Below are positions 1 through 63,249 of a stretch of DNA of 64,000 bases, piece by piece (the stretch's first letter is position 1; each line of letters opens with the position of its first letter). The position numbers and the translations under genes were made by a program. The notes under the pieces are model-generated. The model ran no database searches. It was not told the origin of the DNA and saw nothing but the letters and a program-made list of their open reading frames with translations. The stretch spans positions 40,319 through 104,318 of the forward strand of contig CAZFBW010000001.1 of the NCBI GenBank assembly GCA_964517625.1, given 5' to 3'. The DNA comes from an uncultured Candidatus Saccharibacteria bacterium. GTDB lineage: Bacteria > Patescibacteriota > Minisyncoccia > Phycocordibacterales > UBA5272.

Positions 1-2
1 CT

Positions 3-1460
3 ACCCTTGAAATGGCTAAAGACAGCGGACTTACGATTATTCCGGTCATCACAAAAATTGATAGCCCGCTTGCAAACGTAAAAGAGGTGAAGGAAGAAAT
101 TGTTACGCTTCTTGGTTGTAGAGAAGAAGATATTTTGTCTGCATCAGGAAAGACAGGCGAAGGGGTGGAAGAAATTCTTGAACAAATTGTTGTACGTGTT
201 CCGCCACCAAAAAGTGAATTTGTTGATGAGAAAGGAAATCAGACTCGCGCGCTTATTTTTGATTTTGAATACAGTAACCACCAGGGAGTTATTTTGTATG
301 TTCGTGTTCTTGATGGCTCAATTAAGGCAGGGGACGATTTATTATTTATTCAAGCAGATCACCGATTCGTTGTCCGTGAGGTTGGCACATTTTCTCCAGA
401 GCGTGTAGAGGGAAAATTAATTTCTGCCGGAGAGATTGGTTACATCGTGACTGGTATAAAAGAACCAGGCATTGCACGCGTAGGTGACACCGTTACAACG
501 TTTGCCCGACCACTACACGCTTTTCCTGGGTATGCTGAACCGCTCCCGCTTGTGTTTGCGGCGGTGTATCCTGAATCTCAGGAAGAGTTTGATGATTTGC
601 GTAGTTCGCTTTCCAAACTAAAACTCTCCGATTCATCACTTACCTTTGAAGAAGAATCATCTGGTGCACTTGGTCGTGGGTTTCGTTGTGGGTTTTTGGG
701 AATGCTTCACTTGGAAATTGTGACTGAGCGATTACGACGTGAGTTTGACCAGGAACTTGTAGTGACAACACCCTCAATTACCTATGAAGTGATGATGAAA
801 AATGGGGTGAAGCAAATGGTATATACACCAATTCATTTTCCAGATCATGGACAATATATTTCTGTGCGTGAGCCGTGGGTACTACTTACGGTGATTACAC
901 CGCATGATTATGTGAGTCCTTTAATGCAGATTCTCCACAAACACGAGGGTGATATTTTGGATATGGTTGATTGGGGTCACGATCGCGTGCAGATGAAAGT
1001 GGACATGCCTCTTCGCGAGCTCATGCGTAACTTTTTTGATGAAGTGAAAGGTGGGACAAGTGGCTATGCATCTATTGCATACGAACAAGGGGAAATGAAA
1101 GATGCCCACGTAACGCGACTTGATGTCTATATTGCCGAAGAGCGTGTCGCGGCATTTTCTCGTGTGATTCCTGAATATCGCGCTAACGAAGAATCCGAAG
1201 AGGTTGTTGAAAAGTTAGAAAAGATTTTGCCGAGGGAAATGTTTCGTGTAAAAATCCAAGCTTACGTTAAGGGTCGTATTATTGCGTCGCGCTCTATTGC
1301 ACCGATGAAAAAGGACGTGACTGGATATTTGTATGGAGGAGATATTACACGAAAAATGAAATTGCGTGAAAAGCAAAAGCGCGGTAAAGATAGAATGCAG
1401 AGAGAAGGAAAGGTGCGCATTGAGCACGACACATTCTTAAAGATGATGCGACCAGAATAA
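3..1460 (+). CDS. lepA: Elongation factor 4 (LepA), C-terminal about 480 aa; the 5' end lies upstream of the window
   Basis: ORF 12..1460 is open back to the window edge. The translation shows typical LepA domains II-V and C-terminal domain (…GKTGEGVEEILE…, VPPPK, LHLEIVTERLRREF, …GGDITRKMKLREKQKRGK). Confidence 0.9.
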   Translation, partial: TLEMAKDSGLTIIPVITKIDSPLANVKEVKEEIVTLLGCREEDILSASGKTGEGVEEILEQIVVRVPPPKSEFVDEKGNQTRALIFDFEYSNHQGVILYVRVLDGSIKAGDDLLFIQADHRFVVREVGTFSPERVEGKLISAGEIGYIVTGIKEPGIARVGDTVTTFARPLHAFPGYAEPLPLVFAAVYPESQEEFDDLRSSLSKLKLSDSSLTFEEESSGALGRGFRCGFLGMLHLEIVTERLRREFDQELVVTTPSITYEVMMKNGVKQMVYTPIHFPDHGQYISVREPWVLLTVITPHDYVSPLMQILHKHEGDILDMVDWGHDRVQMKVDMPLRELMRNFFDEVKGGTSGYASIAYEQGEMKDAHVTRLDVYIAEERVAAFSRVIPEYRANEESEEVVEKLEKILPREMFRVKIQAYVKGRIIASRSIAPMKKDVTGYLYGGDITRKMKLREKQKRGKDRMQREGKVRIEHDTFLKMMRPE

Positions 1461-3239: not shown

Positions 3240-3387
3240 AAATTCGGTTCAATGAACCAAAACTTCCACAGAGTCACACCTGAGTGTGAACGTGGAAGTT
3301 TTTTATTTTATGGCGGGAATCGCTTCTCCCTTCGGTCGAAACGCACTATTTTTATAGTCACTTCGTTTCTTAAAAATAGGCGCCCTC

Positions 3388-3410
3388 GGTTCGATTCCCG
3401 CCGGAGGGCA
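3388..3410 (+). repeat. Inverted copy of the tRNA-Arg 3' end (ggttcgattcccgccggagggca) lying just past the tRNA terminator
   Basis: 22/23 identical to the 3' T-loop/acceptor of the minus-strand tRNA at 3435..3506, but on the opposite strand. It is part of the composite element at 3311..3412. Confidence 0.7.
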
Positions 3411-3434
3411 AGGAAAAACACGAAGTGTTTTTAG

Positions 3435-3506
3435 TGCCCCCGGCGGGAATCGAACCTACAATGACTCCTTAGGACGGAGCAGTTATATCCATTTAACTAC
3501 AGGGGC
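3435..3506 (-). tRNA. tRNA-Arg (anticodon CCU)
   Basis: Hand-folded cloverleaf. Acceptor GCCCCUG/CGGGGGC, D-arm GUUA/UAAC, anticodon stem GCUCC/GGAGU with loop GUCCUAA, T-loop TTCGATT. There is one A:C mismatch in the T-stem. Confidence 0.7.
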
Positions 3507-4063: not shown

Positions 4064-4201
4064 CAAAAATTAAAAAACTGCGTGAAAGCAGTTTTTTAAT
4101 TTTGCTGGAGCCGGGCTTGGGAAGAGGGTCGGAGAAACGGGAGTTTCTCCGTGGCGGAAGAATCGAAACCGCAGGGTTTCGAAACAAAACTCTGTTTTGT
4201 T

Positions 4202-4224
4202 GAGCCTGGGTCCCAGCACAAAAA
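4202..4224 (+). repeat. 23-nt direct repeat of the tRNA-Phe 3' end plus flank (gagcctgggtcccagcacaaaaa)
   Basis: Identical to 4047..4069. About 137 bp separate the two copies, and the second is followed by an 11-bp-stem hairpin at 4226..4254. Confidence 0.8.
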
Positions 4225-9161: not shown

Positions 9162-11042
9162 ATGTGTGGCATTATTGGCATTCTCACAAAGGAAAAGAAG
9201 AATATTACAGGAGACTTGATAGGGGCCTTATCTCGACTTGAGTACCGAGGGTACGATAGCGCGGGAATTGCTCTATCGGATGGGCACCAGTTGCATACAC
9301 TTAAGTGTGTTGGGGCGCCAAGTCAGTATTTGTATGAAAGGGATCTTACAAAAAACAAGGCACCGGTTTTATCGTATGTAGGCATTGGTCACAATCGCTG
9401 GGCGACGCACGGTAAGCCGACAGTTGTAAACGCGCATCCACACTTTGATACGAAGAAGCGCATTGCGGTTGTACACAACGGAACGATTCTCAACTATGAA
9501 TCACTTCGCAATGAATTGAAACAGCACGGCGCACTATTTGTTTCAGACACCGACACTGAAGTGATACCCCACTTGATTGCATACTACACGGAGAAAGGAA
9601 TGTCGATGCGTGATGCATTTATAAGTGCAGTGAATCGTCTTGAAGGGGCGTTTGGTATTGTTGCATTAGATGTGCATGATGGAAACACACTGTATGTTGC
9701 AAAAGAGGGTAGTCCAATTGTGATTGGTCTCTCGCACGGCGCACTCTATGTTGCATCAAGCGTGCATGGGTTCTTACCGTTTACGGATGAGTTCGTTACA
9801 CTTCACGACGGAGAAATTGCAGTCCTCTCTTCGGAGAAAGAATTACAAACTGAAATCATCAGATACAAAGATAATAAAAAAATTAATAATCGTACTTCTC
9901 AAACCGCTCTATCCGTACAGCTTCACGATTTATCCAAAGGAGACTTTGAGACGTTCATGTTGAAGGAAATTTTTGAACAACCAGCAACGACACAGGCAAC
10001 GCTCCTTGGTCGTATCAATGACAAACAAGGAACGGCAATGCTCGGTGGACTTGTTGATTCGGAACCATTGCTACAAAAGATAACCAATATTTTATTTACT
10101 GGGTGCGGTACGGCATACCACGCCACCCTTGTAGCACAACATATTATTGAGCATATTACCGATATTACCGTACGAAGCGAAATTGCCTCGGAAGGGAAAT
10201 ATAAGACACTGCACACCAAAGAAGACCAAACCGCCGTGTTTGCAATCAGTCAATCGGGAGAAACAGCGGACACGCTCGAGTATGTGAAAGAATTGAAAAA
10301 TAAAGGGTATGAAATATTTGGCATTGTAAATGTTGTGGGGAGTGCGCTTGCAGAATTGGCTGGAAAAGGAATATACACGAAAGCTGGTTCTGAAATTGGC
10401 GTTGCATCAACGAAAGCATTCACTTCACAACTAGCGTCATTGTATTTGCTCGCACTCCATCTTGCGCGCATGCGTACCTTTAGCGCAAAAGAAGGGATGA
10501 AGTTTGCTTCGGCGCTTGAGCGCATTCCCAACCTCATGAAAGAAACACTCTTACTTAATGGAGAGGTGGAAGGGCTCGCTTCCAAGTATCAAGCGATTAC
10601 AAAAATTCAATTTTTAGGAAGAGGTGTTCATGTGCCGATTGCGCAGGAAGCATCGCTTAAATTTAAAGAAATTACATATCTCGAGACGGGAGCATATCCG
10701 CTTGGTGAGTTAAAGCATGGACCGATTGCTATCGTCGATGAAGAAACACTTTCGGTGGTTATTTTACCAAACGATGAACTCTTTGAACTTGGCGTTAACT
10801 CAATTGAGCAAATTAAATCAAAAGGCGGAAAAGTTCTTCTCATTACCGACACATCAGTTAAGAATCATCCAATTTGTAAAAAAGTCGATGATGTAATTTT
10901 TATTCCGCACATTGAGGACGACATCTTCTACCCGTTTTTGGAAATTATACCGCTTCAGTTATTTGCCTATCATTTTGCAAAATTACTTGGAAGAAATATT
11001 GATAAGCCAAGAAACTTAGCAAAATCGGTGACGGTTCAATAG
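9162..11042 (+). CDS. glmS: Glutamine--fructose-6-phosphate aminotransferase
   Basis: N-terminal MCGIIG nucleophile and two SIS domains. The 5' leader is too short for a glmS ribozyme. Confidence 0.9.
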   Translation: MCGIIGILTKEKKNITGDLIGALSRLEYRGYDSAGIALSDGHQLHTLKCVGAPSQYLYERDLTKNKAPVLSYVGIGHNRWATHGKPTVVNAHPHFDTKKRIAVVHNGTILNYESLRNELKQHGALFVSDTDTEVIPHLIAYYTEKGMSMRDAFISAVNRLEGAFGIVALDVHDGNTLYVAKEGSPIVIGLSHGALYVASSVHGFLPFTDEFVTLHDGEIAVLSSEKELQTEIIRYKDNKKINNRTSQTALSVQLHDLSKGDFETFMLKEIFEQPATTQATLLGRINDKQGTAMLGGLVDSEPLLQKITNILFTGCGTAYHATLVAQHIIEHITDITVRSEIASEGKYKTLHTKEDQTAVFAISQSGETADTLEYVKELKNKGYEIFGIVNVVGSALAELAGKGIYTKAGSEIGVASTKAFTSQLASLYLLALHLARMRTFSAKEGMKFASALERIPNLMKETLLLNGEVEGLASKYQAITKIQFLGRGVHVPIAQEASLKFKEITYLETGAYPLGELKHGPIAIVDEETLSVVILPNDELFELGVNSIEQIKSKGGKVLLITDTSVKNHPICKKVDDVIFIPHIEDDIFYPFLEIIPLQLFAYHFAKLLGRNIDKPRNLAKSVTVQ

Positions 11043-17084: not shown

Positions 17085-17264
17085 CAAAAAATAAGGAGCA
17101 AAGCGACTATATTTTTGTGATGTCGGAGTACTTAGACTTTTATGAGTGAAGCGAAATAAAAGGCTTTAGTACTATCGACGCACAAATAAGACATCAAACC
17201 AAAGGATTTCTAAGGAGCGAACCGACTCGTAAGGGTCACGGGTAAAAGTGCTATAATTGAGAAA

Positions 17265-24260: not shown

Positions 24261-24328
24261 AGGAAAATAGTACCAGAATAGGGGGAAAGCGCAATGAGGG
24301 GGAGAGAAACATGGTCGTCATTATGTTG

Positions 24329-24415
24329 CGGAGAGAGCGAGATTCGAACTCGCGGACCCAATAAAGGGTCGACAGTTTAGTAAACTGTTGATTTAAACCA
24401 CTCATCCATCTCTCC
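24329..24415 (-). tRNA. Type-II (long variable arm) tRNA, Ser-like, with apparent anticodon ACU (unusual A34)
   Basis: GGAGAGAUGGAUGAGUGGUUUAAAUCA-ACAGU-UUACUAA-ACUGU-variable arm-GCGAG-TTCGAAT-CTCGC-UCUCUCC-G. G73 discriminator. A TATAAT promoter lies about 30 nt upstream. The anticodon is read from a hand fold. Confidence 0.6.
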
Positions 24416-24441: not shown

Positions 24442-24465
24442 GCGGCGCAGAATTATAGTCGCTTT
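24442..24465 (-). promoter_or_regulatory. tRNA promoter -10 region (minus strand aaagcgacTATAATtctgcgccgc); 24-nt motif repeated at 26223..26246
   Basis: Exact TATAAT positioned correctly for the tRNA at 24415. The same 24-mer recurs 1.78 kb away. Confidence 0.55.
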
Positions 24466-24595
24466 GCTCCTTAATTCTGCATCCTGCAAAAATATGGTTG
24501 CCCCACTCCTTCTTGTGTTGCTAGACGCAACACGTGCGAAGTGATTTGAAGCTTTTTTGTATGGAACGCTTCGCTTGCAAAAAACTTAAAATCAG

Positions 24596-26222: not shown

Positions 26223-26246
26223 GCGGCGCAGAATTATAGTCGCTTT
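26223..26246 (-). repeat. Second copy of the 24-nt tRNA-promoter motif (gcggcgcagaattatagtcgcttt), with no tRNA downstream
   Basis: Identical to 24442..24465 and directly adjacent to the 3'-fragment copy of tRNA-Ser(CGA). Confidence 0.8.
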
Positions 26247-26255
26247 ACGCCTTGT

Positions 26256-26278
26256 TTTTGCGGAAATGGTGGGATTTG
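26256..26278 (-). repeat. Orphan copy of the tRNA-Ser(CGA) 3' end (23 nt), about 180 bp from the intact tRNA
   Basis: ttttgcggaaatggtgggatttg is identical to 26454..26476. Confidence 0.8.
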
Positions 26279-26458
26279 GTCACCAAACATATCTTTTTAT
26301 TTCATGACTACATTCATAAAAAGATTGTTTCGCGACCCCGACTTCACCCTCGCTGTTTTTGATTACAAAATCAGACTTCGTCTCGGGTTCAGTTCAAATC
26401 TACTCATTTCTCGCAAAATACAATTGCACAAAGCTCACGCTTCGTGCTCATTATTTTG

Positions 26459-45212: not shown

Positions 45213-45725
45213 TTAGTAGCACATGTAGTATCCACTGACATAGATGCAACTATTGCGTGGGTTGTATTGATAGTTGAAATAATGATGTCTGCCGTAATAG
45301 CTGTAATTTACGGATGGATAGTAACTGTTGTAGTAGCTTCCGTAATAGGATGGGTATGAGTACGTATTGTAGTAGTTGTACGGGTAGGTGTAGTTACTAT
45401 ACGAGTAGTTGTACGGGTAGGTGTAGTTGCTGTAGGTATAGTCGTAGGTGTATGGGTATGTATACGAGTATGAGTTGTTATATGGATAACTGTAATTGTA
45501 ATAATTGCTGTACGTATTGTTGTAGTACGGATAGTATCCGTAGTTGTAGCCGTACTGGTTATAGCAATCGTAATTGTAGCCTACGGCATAGGCGCAATTA
45601 TTATAATTTGCATAGCCATATCCAGTTGTTGGATATCCGTAATTGTATGTTTGTGCAGAAGTAAAAAGCACGCTACTTATAAAAAGTGAAGAGGACACAA
45701 TGGCAAGTGAAAGTATCTTTTTCAT
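45213..45725 (-). CDS. Secreted tyrosine/asparagine-rich low-complexity repeat protein (170 aa, about 35% Tyr, 4 Cys)
   Basis: Signal peptide MKKILSLAIVSSSLFISSVLFTSA, followed by YNY/YTYPY/SNYTYPYNYSY repeats. Promoter TTGACG-17-TAGGAT on the minus strand. Confidence 0.6.
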   Translation of the reverse strand: MKKILSLAIVSSSLFISSVLFTSAQTYNYGYPTTGYGYANYNNCAYAVGYNYDCYNQYGYNYGYYPYYNNTYSNYYNYSYPYNNSYSYTYPYTYDYTYSNYTYPYNYSYSNYTYPYNYYNTYSYPSYYGSYYNSYYPSVNYSYYGRHHYFNYQYNPRNSCIYVSGYYMCY

Positions 45726-51312: not shown

Positions 51313-51709
51313 CAGATTACCTTTCACGGTTGCTGTGTTAGACCAAAATTTCTTGACCGTTTTCAAGGATAAATGGAATCATTGGAAAATCGGCGCATGT
51401 GCGAGGTGGTTTTTCTTCTGGTGTTTCTTCGGGTGGAGGAGACGGTAGATTTTCTCTGGTGTCCATGGTCAAATCCCTTTTAGTTGAAAGAGCAACACAA
51501 TACACCTTACCACGTGAAAAGTTACTCGTAAAGATGGTGTTTTTATGATAGTATTGTTATTTATAAGCAATGCCGGAGTGGCTCAAGTAGCTTGGCTACG
51601 CAGACGTCTGTAGCTAGCAAGCGAAAGACGCTGAATGGTTTCCATTCCGAGCATGTGTAATGTGTTTATTATATTTTTTGTAGAAAGATATAAACAATAA
51701 GAGAATTAT

Positions 51710-51790: not shown

Positions 51791-51851
51791 CTATAAATAT
51801 AAAATGACCACATACACGAAGTGTGGTTATTTTATATTTACTGTACCTGGT

Positions 51852-51955
51852 GGAGAGAGGACTTGAACCGAAGGCGACATATTTTCTTAGACTGTAATCA
51901 GTCTGTTGAAAATACAAGTCTCGACTGAAAGGAGAAACAAGTCCTCTCTCCGGCA
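51852..51955 (+). repeat. Composite tRNA-associated element (Leu copy): inverted 18-nt copy of the tRNA-Leu 3' end, a conserved about 55-bp core with a hairpin, then a direct 18-nt copy of the tRNA 3' end
   Basis: 51852..51869 is the reverse complement of GGTTCAAGTCCTCTCTCC. The core gaaccgaaggcgacatattttcttagactgtaatcagtctgttgaaaatacaagtctcga is shared with 63107..63166. 51938..51955 (caagtcctctctccggca) is identical to the tRNA 3' end. Confidence 0.8.
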
Positions 51956-59712: not shown

Positions 59713-59754
59713 GGGGGAGATTGCTCCATGAGATGGTTCACCTATCTCATGGGG

Positions 59755-59782
59755 TTGACAAAATCTGTGGAACTGCTATACT
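59755..59782 (+). promoter_or_regulatory. Sigma70 promoter TTGACA-16-TATACT for a non-coding RNA
   Basis: Consensus hexamers with no ORF downstream. Confidence 0.6.
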
Positions 59783-59788
59783 GAACTT

Positions 59789-60023
59789 CCTCCCTGAACA
59801 TTTGTTCTTAAAGTTTTAGTTCAGGCGCGGGAAGGGTTGCTAGCAGAATATCGCTAGTTAACGCGAGTAGCATCAACCCTTCGGGGAGTCCTCCTTTGAA
59901 ACAGGTTGGAGGTCTCACCCTTTGAGAGAGTAATCACAAAGCGGCCGGGGTCATCAGCAGAAACACGCTGCGCCAGACCCCAACAGCAACACCCCCTCGA
60001 CCTTCACCGGCCGAGGGGTTTTT
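59789..60023 (+). ncRNA. Structured non-coding RNA of about 235 nt (unclassified; SRP RNA is one candidate)
   Basis: It has its own promoter and an intrinsic terminator (cccctcg…cgagggg plus T-run at about 59993..60023). It is GC-rich with multiple hairpins, including a UUCG tetraloop (cccttcgggg), a ctagc/gctag stem, and a GGAAGG…AGCAG motif reminiscent of SRP RNA helix 8. Confidence 0.45.
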
Positions 60024-60189
60024 CATTTGACAAGGTGCGCTATTTTATATAGAACTTATATATACCGTAGCGATTGATTATCCACCACGATTGAACGACC
60101 GAATTCCTGCTACACTGTTAATGTATTTGAACATATTTTGGTTTCGTATTTACTAGTCCCTAGTTACTAATTCCTATCAACCTATCTAC

Positions 60190-63059: not shown

Positions 63060-63092
63060 CCAAGAAAAATACCCATCAGGGTATTTTTTAAT

Positions 63093-63198
63093 GCCGGGAA
63101 GGATTTGAACCGAAGGCGACATATTTTCTTAACCTGTAATCAGGTTGTAGAAAATACAAGTCTCGAGCGTAGCAACGCGAGAGGCAAATCTTTCCCCC
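63093..63198 (+). repeat. Composite tRNA-associated element (Tyr copy): inverted 19-nt copy of the tRNA-Tyr 3' end, the conserved core with a covarying hairpin, then a degenerate direct copy of the tRNA 3' end
   Basis: 63093..63111 is the reverse complement of GGTTCAAATCCTTCCCGGC. The core is 52/57 identical to the Leu copy. The hairpin taacctg-taat-caggttg covaries with Leu's tagactg-taat-cagtctg. 63185..63198 (caaatctttccccc) resembles CAAATCCTTCCCGG. Confidence 0.8.
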
Positions 63199-63249
63199 AC
63201 AAACTTTTCTCTTTTTTGGTATACTAAATTTACTTGTAAAGCACAGGTT

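Follow-up and report, generated by a model that had tools for sequence, protein, structure and literature searches.

The segment between positions 3311 and 3412 of a 64,000-nucleotide stretch of DNA from an uncultured Candidatus Saccharibacteria bacterium (contig CAZFBW010000001.1, positions 40,319 to 104,318; the whole stretch of 64 kilobases, kb, is called the window below), which follows the transfer RNA gene tRNA-Arg(CCU) on the minus strand, is confirmed here as a genuine member of a family of elements about 100-150 nucleotides (nt) long, non-coding and rich in hairpins, that stand at the ends of tRNA genes. The same core families are found beside different tRNAs with arms that always fit the local tRNA, close strains differ at a given tRNA in whether an element is there, is lacking or has been replaced by another, the stems are maintained by two-sided changes, and the element encodes nothing. 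We take the family, with a likelihood that falls somewhat short of even, to be one of non-autonomous mobile elements that lodge at tRNA gene ends and are joined to them via the T-loop, by a mechanism that we infer. In our view they would be selfish or neutral passengers rather than part of tRNA biology. The set of tRNA-flanking elements extends beyond three copies and is, as it appears, undescribed; the papers searched on Patescibacteria tRNA introns or on prokaryotic MITEs (miniature transposable elements with inverted repeats) hold no mention of it.

Architecture and fold of the element at tRNA-Arg

In a complete copy the tRNA is followed, in this order, by an AT-rich palindrome, an inverted and imperfect copy of about the last 18-23 nt of the tRNA (D'), a structured core, and a direct copy of its last 11-23 nt (D). 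A preliminary description of this DNA had presented the Arg copy as a divergent member of the same family as the copies at tRNA-Leu and tRNA-Tyr, and the comparison bears this out, the order of the parts, the boxes and the three-way fold being the same (Table 1). The inverted tRNA-end copy of 23 nt that it had reported is present, as 22 matches to the last 22 nt of tRNA-Arg plus one inserted base, with a longest exact inverted run of 17 nt, and so is the exact direct copy of 11 nt. D' and D make up, respectively, the 5' and the 3' arm of a closing stem, P1. Box 1 contains a GAACC complementary to the T-loop, and its remainder pairs with box 2; beyond D stands the terminator that belongs to the convergent upstream gene. 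The hairpin that had been placed downstream of tRNA-Arg is found as a palindrome in which a hairpin and a run of five T are visible and which is terminator-like in both directions. Its stem is only 4-5 bp long, and a consensus terminator scan did not list it because this stem has too few G-C pairs.

The Arg, Leu and Tyr elements can be aligned over their whole length and fold (RNAfold) into the same three-way junction, composed of P1 (D' with D), a long P2 whose base is box 1 paired with box 2, and a small, variable P3; the fold z-scores of the three elements against shuffles are -3.4, -6.3 and -5.7. The box pattern GAACCGARGGCGMC has three exact matches in the window, each just 3' of a tRNA (Arg, Leu and Tyr) and on the strand of that tRNA. 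Comparison with shuffled controls, which had been named beforehand as the refuting test, gave a mean of 0.00 matches over 100 dinucleotide shuffles, none of which (0/100) contained any match. Further copies, whose absence had been named in the same way, were found in metagenomes and in L134, a related locus that is syntenic with the window and whose ClpB is 97% identical.

A covariance model was built from five cores, the Arg copy included, and its five training matches are true by construction. Scores range overall from 54 to 93 bits; the 67 bits of the Arg copy (E about 7e-17) are those of a training sequence and are likewise obtained by construction. The independent matches are a copy in L134 that lies away from tRNAs (54 bits) and weak partial matches in the metagenome relatives L122 and L123. 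In the P2 stem of the Leu subtype, 97% of the cells are paired and six pairs have changed on both sides, with no one-sided changes; the covariation score of P2 was reached by none of 500 shuffles, and slid controls were near zero. The tRNA-sense strand is more stable than the antisense strand by 5-22 kcal/mol in all eight elements (8/8). A G.U pair at the base of P2 and a U.G pair within it are conserved on the tRNA-sense strand, unlike the arms of the tRNA-Ser(CGA) element, where A.C mismatches occur on the sense strand.

The different central hairpin that had been remarked in the Arg copy is real. A pattern scan of metagenomes yielded three relatives, L122, L123 and L124, and in the last of these the same Arg-subtype core (…TGACTATAAAAAT…) stands 170 nt downstream of a tRNA-Lys, with a D' that resembles tRNA-Lys and a P2 stem that differs from that of the Arg copy by a compensatory U-A to A-U change. 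The divergent Arg hairpin is therefore a subtype and not an accident. L122 is a fragment at a contig end. L123/L131 holds a version of 265 nt that contains two internal modules; no tRNA lies within 4.2 kb of it.

As for the additional 6-bp hairpin that had been proposed for the inverted copy (GCCCTC...GAGGGC), the pairing exists; its register is not kept elsewhere, and it competes with the more stable fold in which D' pairs with D as P1 and box 1 with box 2. The alternative helix would join the 5' edge of D' to box 1 (3382-3387), with possible counterparts in L124 (GTCTTTCG/CGAAGGC) and L123 (CCTTTCG/CGAAGG), and it would present D', the complement of the tRNA, within a loop and be incompatible with P1 and P2a. 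It is left unproven as a functional pairing because the register differs between the copies.

No known RNA was recognised in the elements. With Rfam 15, in which small ribozymes, T-box, transfer-messenger RNA (tmRNA) and tRNA-like RNAs are included, only tRNAs were recovered at gathering scores in the window and eight related loci, and permissive scans of the Leu and Arg copies returned noise only (E above 0.04, bits far under the thresholds). A hammerhead was considered for the three-way junction and dropped, a comparison by eye with its core (CUGAUGA / GAAA) showing no fit. Neither ARAGORN nor the Rfam tRNA model called a tRNA or tmRNA inside any element on either strand; the opposite strand does carry a tRNA-like 3' end, but a tRNA, tmRNA or split tRNA there was rejected, since no detector called one and that strand folds worse in 8/8 elements. 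The group I introns of Patescibacteria tRNAs (PMC13011429) are anticodon-loop introns, much larger, and unrelated. Finally, a loose gapped box pattern gave 120 matches, mostly in G+C-rich genomes, and its sole Saccharibacteria match (L114), which has neither a tRNA nor repeats, was attributed to chance.

Table 1. Positions in the window of the parts of the Arg element, of the other elements and of the overlapping open reading frame (ORF)
Feature	Position	Strand	Basis or remarks
tRNA-Arg(CCU), source of the copied 3' end	3435-3506	minus	ARAGORN; Rfam tRNA model, 50.2 bits
Palindrome AAAAACAC-TTC-GTGTTTTT (A-run, short hairpin, T-run) between tRNA-Arg and element	3414-3432	minus	sequence reading
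Arg D', TGCCCTCCGGCGGGAATCGAACC, inverted imperfect copy of the last 22 nt of tRNA-Arg (T-loop to discriminator)	3388-3410	minus	
Arg box 1, GAACCGAGGGCGCC	3379-3392	minus	3 exact matches in the window against 0.00 expected
Arg P2, long A/U-rich hairpin of the Arg subtype (CUAUUUUUA ... UAAAAAUAG)	3342-3383	minus	RNAfold
Arg box 2, TTCGACCGAAGGGAGAAG, holding the small hairpin P3 (CC-GAA-GG)	3323-3340	minus	
Arg D, CGATTCCCGCC, exact 11-nt direct copy of tRNA-Arg positions 56-66	3312-3322	minus	
ORF of 60 codons, judged spurious	3252-3434	plus	mechanical ORF list; antisense to element and palindrome, abuts tRNA end
Element at tRNA-Phe, type B core	4103-4224	plus	D 4202-4224, 23 nt exact
Module after tRNA-Ser(GCU), no clear arms	24506-24593	minus	resembles the two internal modules of L123
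Element at tRNA-Ser(CGA), type C core	26256-26412	minus	D 26256-26278, 23 nt exact; D' degenerate
Mirrored element on the 5' side of tRNA-Leu	51570-51709	plus	direct copy 51570-51582, core, inverted copy 51642-51654, AT-rich palindrome, tRNA
Element at tRNA-Leu(CAA), type A core	51848-51955	plus	D' 51848-51869; D 51938-51955, 18 nt exact
Element at tRNA-Tyr(GUA), type A core	63092-63199	plus	D' 63092-63111; degenerate D 63185-63199

Portable cores, local arms and turnover between strains

When the 450 nt downstream of each tRNA of the window were scanned for copies of that tRNA's own end, a complete element was found at five of the eight tRNAs, with three core types, and a degenerate element at two more, tRNA-Ser(GCU) and tRNA-Glu, the latter being followed by hairpins and a degenerate D. 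The type A core stands at tRNA-Arg, tRNA-Leu, tRNA-Tyr and tRNA-Lys, and the type B core at tRNA-Phe in the window, at tRNA-Leu in L134 and at tRNA-Tyr in another strain, L150. In all the tRNA-flanking copies examined the orientation is that of the neighbouring tRNA. Each of ten D' segments aligns to the end of its own tRNA, well over the T-loop and T-stem and, towards the acceptor, with indels of 1-4 nt or mismatches. Of the five copies of D in the window, four are exact and the one at tRNA-Tyr is degenerate; the length of D varies from 11 to 23 nt, it begins at about C56 in the T-loop, and it ends at the discriminator base (exactly there in Leu and in the relative L135) or up to 6 nt past it. 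The joints between arms and core lie in T-loop sequence on both sides in all copies, reading …TTGAAC(C)/core and core/C(A/G)AnTCC….

At tRNA-Phe the 23-nt direct copy stands 139 nt downstream of the tRNA, and D' is degenerate, with an A-to-G change that preserves the pairing as G.U. The type B core contains an inner hairpin, GGCGGAAGAATCGAAACC-GCAG-GGTTTCGAAAC, that reads like an Arg-type D' with box 1 and box 2 from which P2 has been removed; this resemblance suggests that old arms may be carried along when a core gains new ones. In the mirrored element on the 5' side of tRNA-Leu, which is also found in L134, the direct part copies tRNA nt -2..11 and comes just after a promoter-like TAGTAT, and the inverted part is CCATTCCGAGCAT.

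A derivation of the core itself from a decayed inverted and direct copy of tRNA-Tyr was also considered. For the type A cores of Leu and Tyr, tRNA-Tyr is the best match among 22 comparisons (p 0.00-0.007 per comparison); after correction the derivation is no more than suggestive, the Arg, B and C cores do not show it, and it was set aside, to be kept as a lead.

The surroundings of the serine tRNAs hold two further features. A 24-nt repeat, AAAGCGACTATAATTCTGCGCCGC in the sense of the minus strand, follows both the Ser(GCU) and the Ser(CGA) element (24442-24465 and 26223-26246), and a shorter version, AAGGAGCAAAGCGACTATA, follows tRNA-Glu (17092-17111); the motif is promoter-like in appearance (TATAAT). 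ARAGORN also calls a tRNA-Ser with anticodon ACU at 24328-24415, 180 nt downstream of tRNA-Ser(GCU), and for bacteria a Ser tRNA whose A34 is unmodified would be uncommon.

The turnover of the elements is best seen at tRNA-Tyr, where four states occur among strains whose ClpB proteins are 92-97% identical. The window has a type A element; L134 has the same tRNA, the palindrome and, as a remnant, the first 9 nt of D', the core and D being absent (85-nt gap); L149 (96% ClpB identity) has no element; and in L150 (92%) a type B core stands behind a D' specific for Tyr. In L135 and L155 (82-84%) there are other cores again, in the same layout. L154, whose ClpB is identical to that of L155, carries in place of the small D'-core-D element of L155 an element of more than 9 kb that begins 3 nt after the tRNA-Tyr discriminator (13759 onward) and encodes a large serine recombinase and a Prim-Pol protein. 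The encoded 3' CCA varies as well between close strains: tRNA-Tyr ends in CCA in the window (63060-63062) and in CTA in L134 (12945-12947), and tRNA-Phe has no encoded CCA in the window (4064) and a CCA in L141 (565-567).

At tRNA-Phe, the site is empty in L141, where a neighbouring protein is 78% identical; a single terminator, resembling the one that follows D in the window, stands directly after the tRNA, and the insertion in the window therefore amounts to about 156 nt and is bounded by repeats. At tRNA-Leu, L134 has a type B element, and the T-stem of the tRNA differs by compensatory changes; an older T-arm and acceptor strand are displaced downstream, and the 3' two-thirds of a type A element are present with several compensatory changes. 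L134 holds, in addition, an insertion of about 101 nt (9731-9831; type A core and palindrome), situated where a conserved non-coding region upstream of clpB has its 5' edge; the window has no insertion at that site. The region itself, between a sod-like gene and clpB (window 59750-60060, minus strand), is a conserved, G+C-rich non-coding stretch of about 330 nt with a promoter-like TATAAAAT and its own terminator; it has no Rfam match even at E<=1 and is possibly an unrecognised structured RNA.

For tRNA-Arg, an empty site was not found by synteny, the relatives L144-L148 and L151-L153 being non-syntenic and without a tRNA there. Two independent short-read assemblies (L139 and L141, position 1 of each, at about window position 3480) end at the same base inside tRNA-Arg, on the side that faces the element, and this shared break may be an assembly-graph branch from a polymorphic or repeated flank.

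Judged by ClpB and other proteins, the window belongs to the Patescibacteria, Candidatus Paceibacterota (Parcubacteria); it is ordinary chromosome, with lepA, secA, murB, murC, rpoB/C-like genes, dnaG, rpoD, clpB and parB. No recombinase, integrase, transposase or reverse transcriptase was found among the roughly 50 window ORFs scanned, and no integrase inside any copy. One ORF without a Pfam match (45213-45725) contains a tandem duplication with a period of 33 nt at 45371-45428 (AGTAGTTGTACGGGTAGGTGTAGTT…).

Proposed mode of movement and rival explanations

If the family is mobile, as we tentatively propose, the core would be the mobile unit, and its joining to a further tRNA locus would run, on either side, through the T-loop sequence, which is universally conserved. 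The tRNA end would thereby become duplicated, directly as D and in inverted form as D', the arms being re-created from the target; this would be the work either of template switching or recombination guided by microhomology, or of an enzyme that acts in trans. To the version that relies on template switching and dispenses with an enzyme we would grant no more than about half of the likelihood given to the mobile-element account as a whole. The filled allele would then persist or spread within the species by homologous recombination through the tRNA and its flank; the tRNA-Leu locus of L134 looks like an imported filled allele and would thus be an example of such a spread. The element would probably be transcribed by read-through from the tRNA, on the tRNA strand. 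There is a substantial chance, though one well short of even, that we are dealing with an undescribed kind of mobile element of candidate-phyla-radiation bacteria, in which arms of about 18 nt are written from the end of the target RNA gene, once inverted and once direct. The portable core would then gain new target-specific inverted ends at each hop, which would imply a new insertion mechanism. Its anchor could be the T-loop, or its guide a stretch of RNA or DNA that complements the end of the tRNA; an RNA intermediate transcribed together with the tRNA might take part.

Several observations weigh against this account. D' is imperfect even beside the perfect 23-mer D of tRNA-Phe, which a simple copy made at insertion does not predict, and no insertion with a perfect D' was found among the copies compared. 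The palindrome looks inserted at Phe and native at Tyr, so that its membership in the insertion is ambiguous. At the tRNA-Leu of L134, D' of the type B element fits the present T-stem and D fits the older one; a ready-made allele imported by recombination therefore fits better there than local templating. The copy of L134 that lies away from tRNAs has no arms. Compensatory changes in palindromes can also arise through DNA template switching without selection, and the comparison covers a small sample, one 64-kb window and about 20 related loci. Two other origins of the arms were discarded: mutagenesis specific for A, of the type found in diversity-generating retroelements, as a cause of the imperfect D', since the differences are not adenine-specific, and, by reasoning only, reverse transcription of both strands primed by the tRNA, which predicts the arm order direct...inverted, the opposite of that observed.

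Chance similarity, or a protein of 60 residues encoded by ORF 3252-3434, is so improbable an explanation that it hardly needs to be retained. The 60-codon ORF does exist; it has no Pfam match at E<=0.01, lies on the strand opposite to the element and the palindrome and reaches up to the tRNA, and the earlier suspicion that it is spurious is very probably correct. The boxes are far beyond chance, the variation between the copies is confined to paired stem positions rather than to third positions of codons, and no conserved ORF corresponding to this one exists in the homologous copies at Leu and Tyr. Another rival is a module useful to the host. It would be transcribed along with the tRNA, as a small RNA or a structured 3' trailer whose arms must fit the tRNA, either because D' pairs with the 3' half of the tRNA or because P1 mimics the acceptor/T-stem helix and so lets the processing enzymes excise it, and its cores would be homogenised between loci by gene conversion. 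The co-orientation with the tRNA in all the tRNA-flanking copies examined, the better fold of the sense strand in 8/8 elements together with its conserved G.U pair, the end of D exactly at the discriminator base in Leu and L135, and the retention of G.U pairing by the A-to-G change in the Phe D' are all in keeping with such a role. We nevertheless consider it unlikely, as the element can be dispensed with, being missing from close relatives at Phe and Tyr, the cores can be wholly different at the same tRNA in related strains, and some copies lie away from any tRNA (L123; L134 at 9.8 kb). Furthermore, the mismatches in the Ser(CGA) arms are A.C on the sense strand, the terminator-like palindrome precedes the element, and no promoter was predicted for it in a scan that was uninformative.

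The elements could also be miniature satellites or remnants of integrase elements that use the segment from the T-loop to the tRNA's 3' end as attachment site, with a tyrosine integrase encoded elsewhere. The tRNA end (D0) and D would then be attL and attR, and the core with D' would represent leftover attP arms. Direct repeats from the T-loop to the tRNA 3' end are indeed the signature of such integration, as in mycobacteriophage Ms6, which integrates at tRNA-Ala with a 26-bp core repeated from the T-loop to the end of the tRNA (PMC1762012). Exact repeats of 23 nt (Phe and Ser), 18 nt (Leu) and 11 nt (Arg) are present, the filled and empty Phe sites fit the Campbell pattern, and in the tRNA-Leu of L134 the T-arm has been replaced, with the old T-arm and acceptor strand displaced downstream. 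The 3' flanks of tRNAs are, moreover, real integration hot spots in this clade, as the serine-recombinase element 3 nt after the tRNA-Tyr of L154 illustrates. Against this, one and the same core occurs with at least three to four tRNA specificities, whereas such integrases need near-perfect core identity (PMC1762012). No integrase was seen in the window ORFs scanned or inside any copy, and the Tyr insertion stands after the native terminator and not within the tRNA. A phage or plasmid origin was rejected, as no exact matches in viral contigs and no blastn matches in phage genomes were found. The inverted copy D' is left unexplained, an inverted copy of this kind not being, to our knowledge, a feature of known attP sites, and the inserted unit is only about 150 bp. 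The integrase-related origin is, in our judgement, unlikely.

Patescibacteria genomes are tiny, and each intergenic base in them is commonly assumed to be under pressure; yet most tRNA genes in these 64 kb carry a structured passenger, and the passenger turns over between near-identical strains. Were the arms rewritten from the target at each insertion, this would be a novel means by which a mobile element recognises or marks the place of its insertion, and a natural case of programmable targeting of tRNA gene ends. Even under a mundane reading, the elements create spurious ORFs, their duplicated tRNA ends mimic prophage att sites, and they are useful strain-level markers.

Comparison with known systems

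Like the integrative elements of the T-loop class, the present elements are inserted at tRNA 3' ends, between direct repeats that extend from the T-loop to that end (11-23 nt here, 26 bp in Ms6), leave the tRNA intact and have empty sites in relatives. They differ from them in their size of about 150 nt, in the absence of genes, in the occurrence of one core at many tRNAs and in the extra inverted copy of the tRNA end; some copies, moreover, stand after a native terminator, 5' of the tRNA, or away from tRNAs.

The resemblance to MITEs lies in the small, non-coding and multi-copy nature of the elements (100-150 nt, several in 64 kb), in the inverted ends that fold into a stem, in the intergenic location, in the polymorphism between strains and in a mobilisation that presumably occurs in trans. 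Unlike those of MITEs, however, the inverted ends differ at each locus and equal the local tRNA end instead of being constant in the family. There is no parent insertion sequence with matching ends and no transposase among the approximately 50 window ORFs scanned. In place of a short target duplication of fixed length there is a variable one of 11-23 nt or more, which is always the tRNA end; the copy of L134 outside tRNAs has no target duplication.

Casposons, which are driven by Cas1 and make target duplications of 14-15 bp, integrate beside the T-psi-C-loop portion of a tRNA gene; the duplication there is 15 bp long, and 5 bp of it lie within the tRNA end (PMC5137440). A target adjacent to the T-psi-C loop and a long direct duplication are thus common to both systems (PMC5137440). 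Casposons are, however, large and mostly archaeal, they carry genes for Cas1 and a polymerase, and their inverted ends are constant, whereas the present elements have no genes and variable arms.

Inverted triplications arise by template switching at palindromes, as formulated in the quasi-palindrome and the fork-stalling and microhomology-mediated replication models. Two such switches, one at a hairpin and one at a microhomology, would give the order seen here, namely segment, palindrome, inverted copy, direct copy; the stems here also change on both sides at once. Such triplications are normally unique accidents, in contrast to elements that recur as a family, have portable cores in common and stand at most tRNAs of one genome. 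In conclusion, we class these elements among known kinds, as a variant of miniature non-autonomous elements and of integration at tRNA ends.

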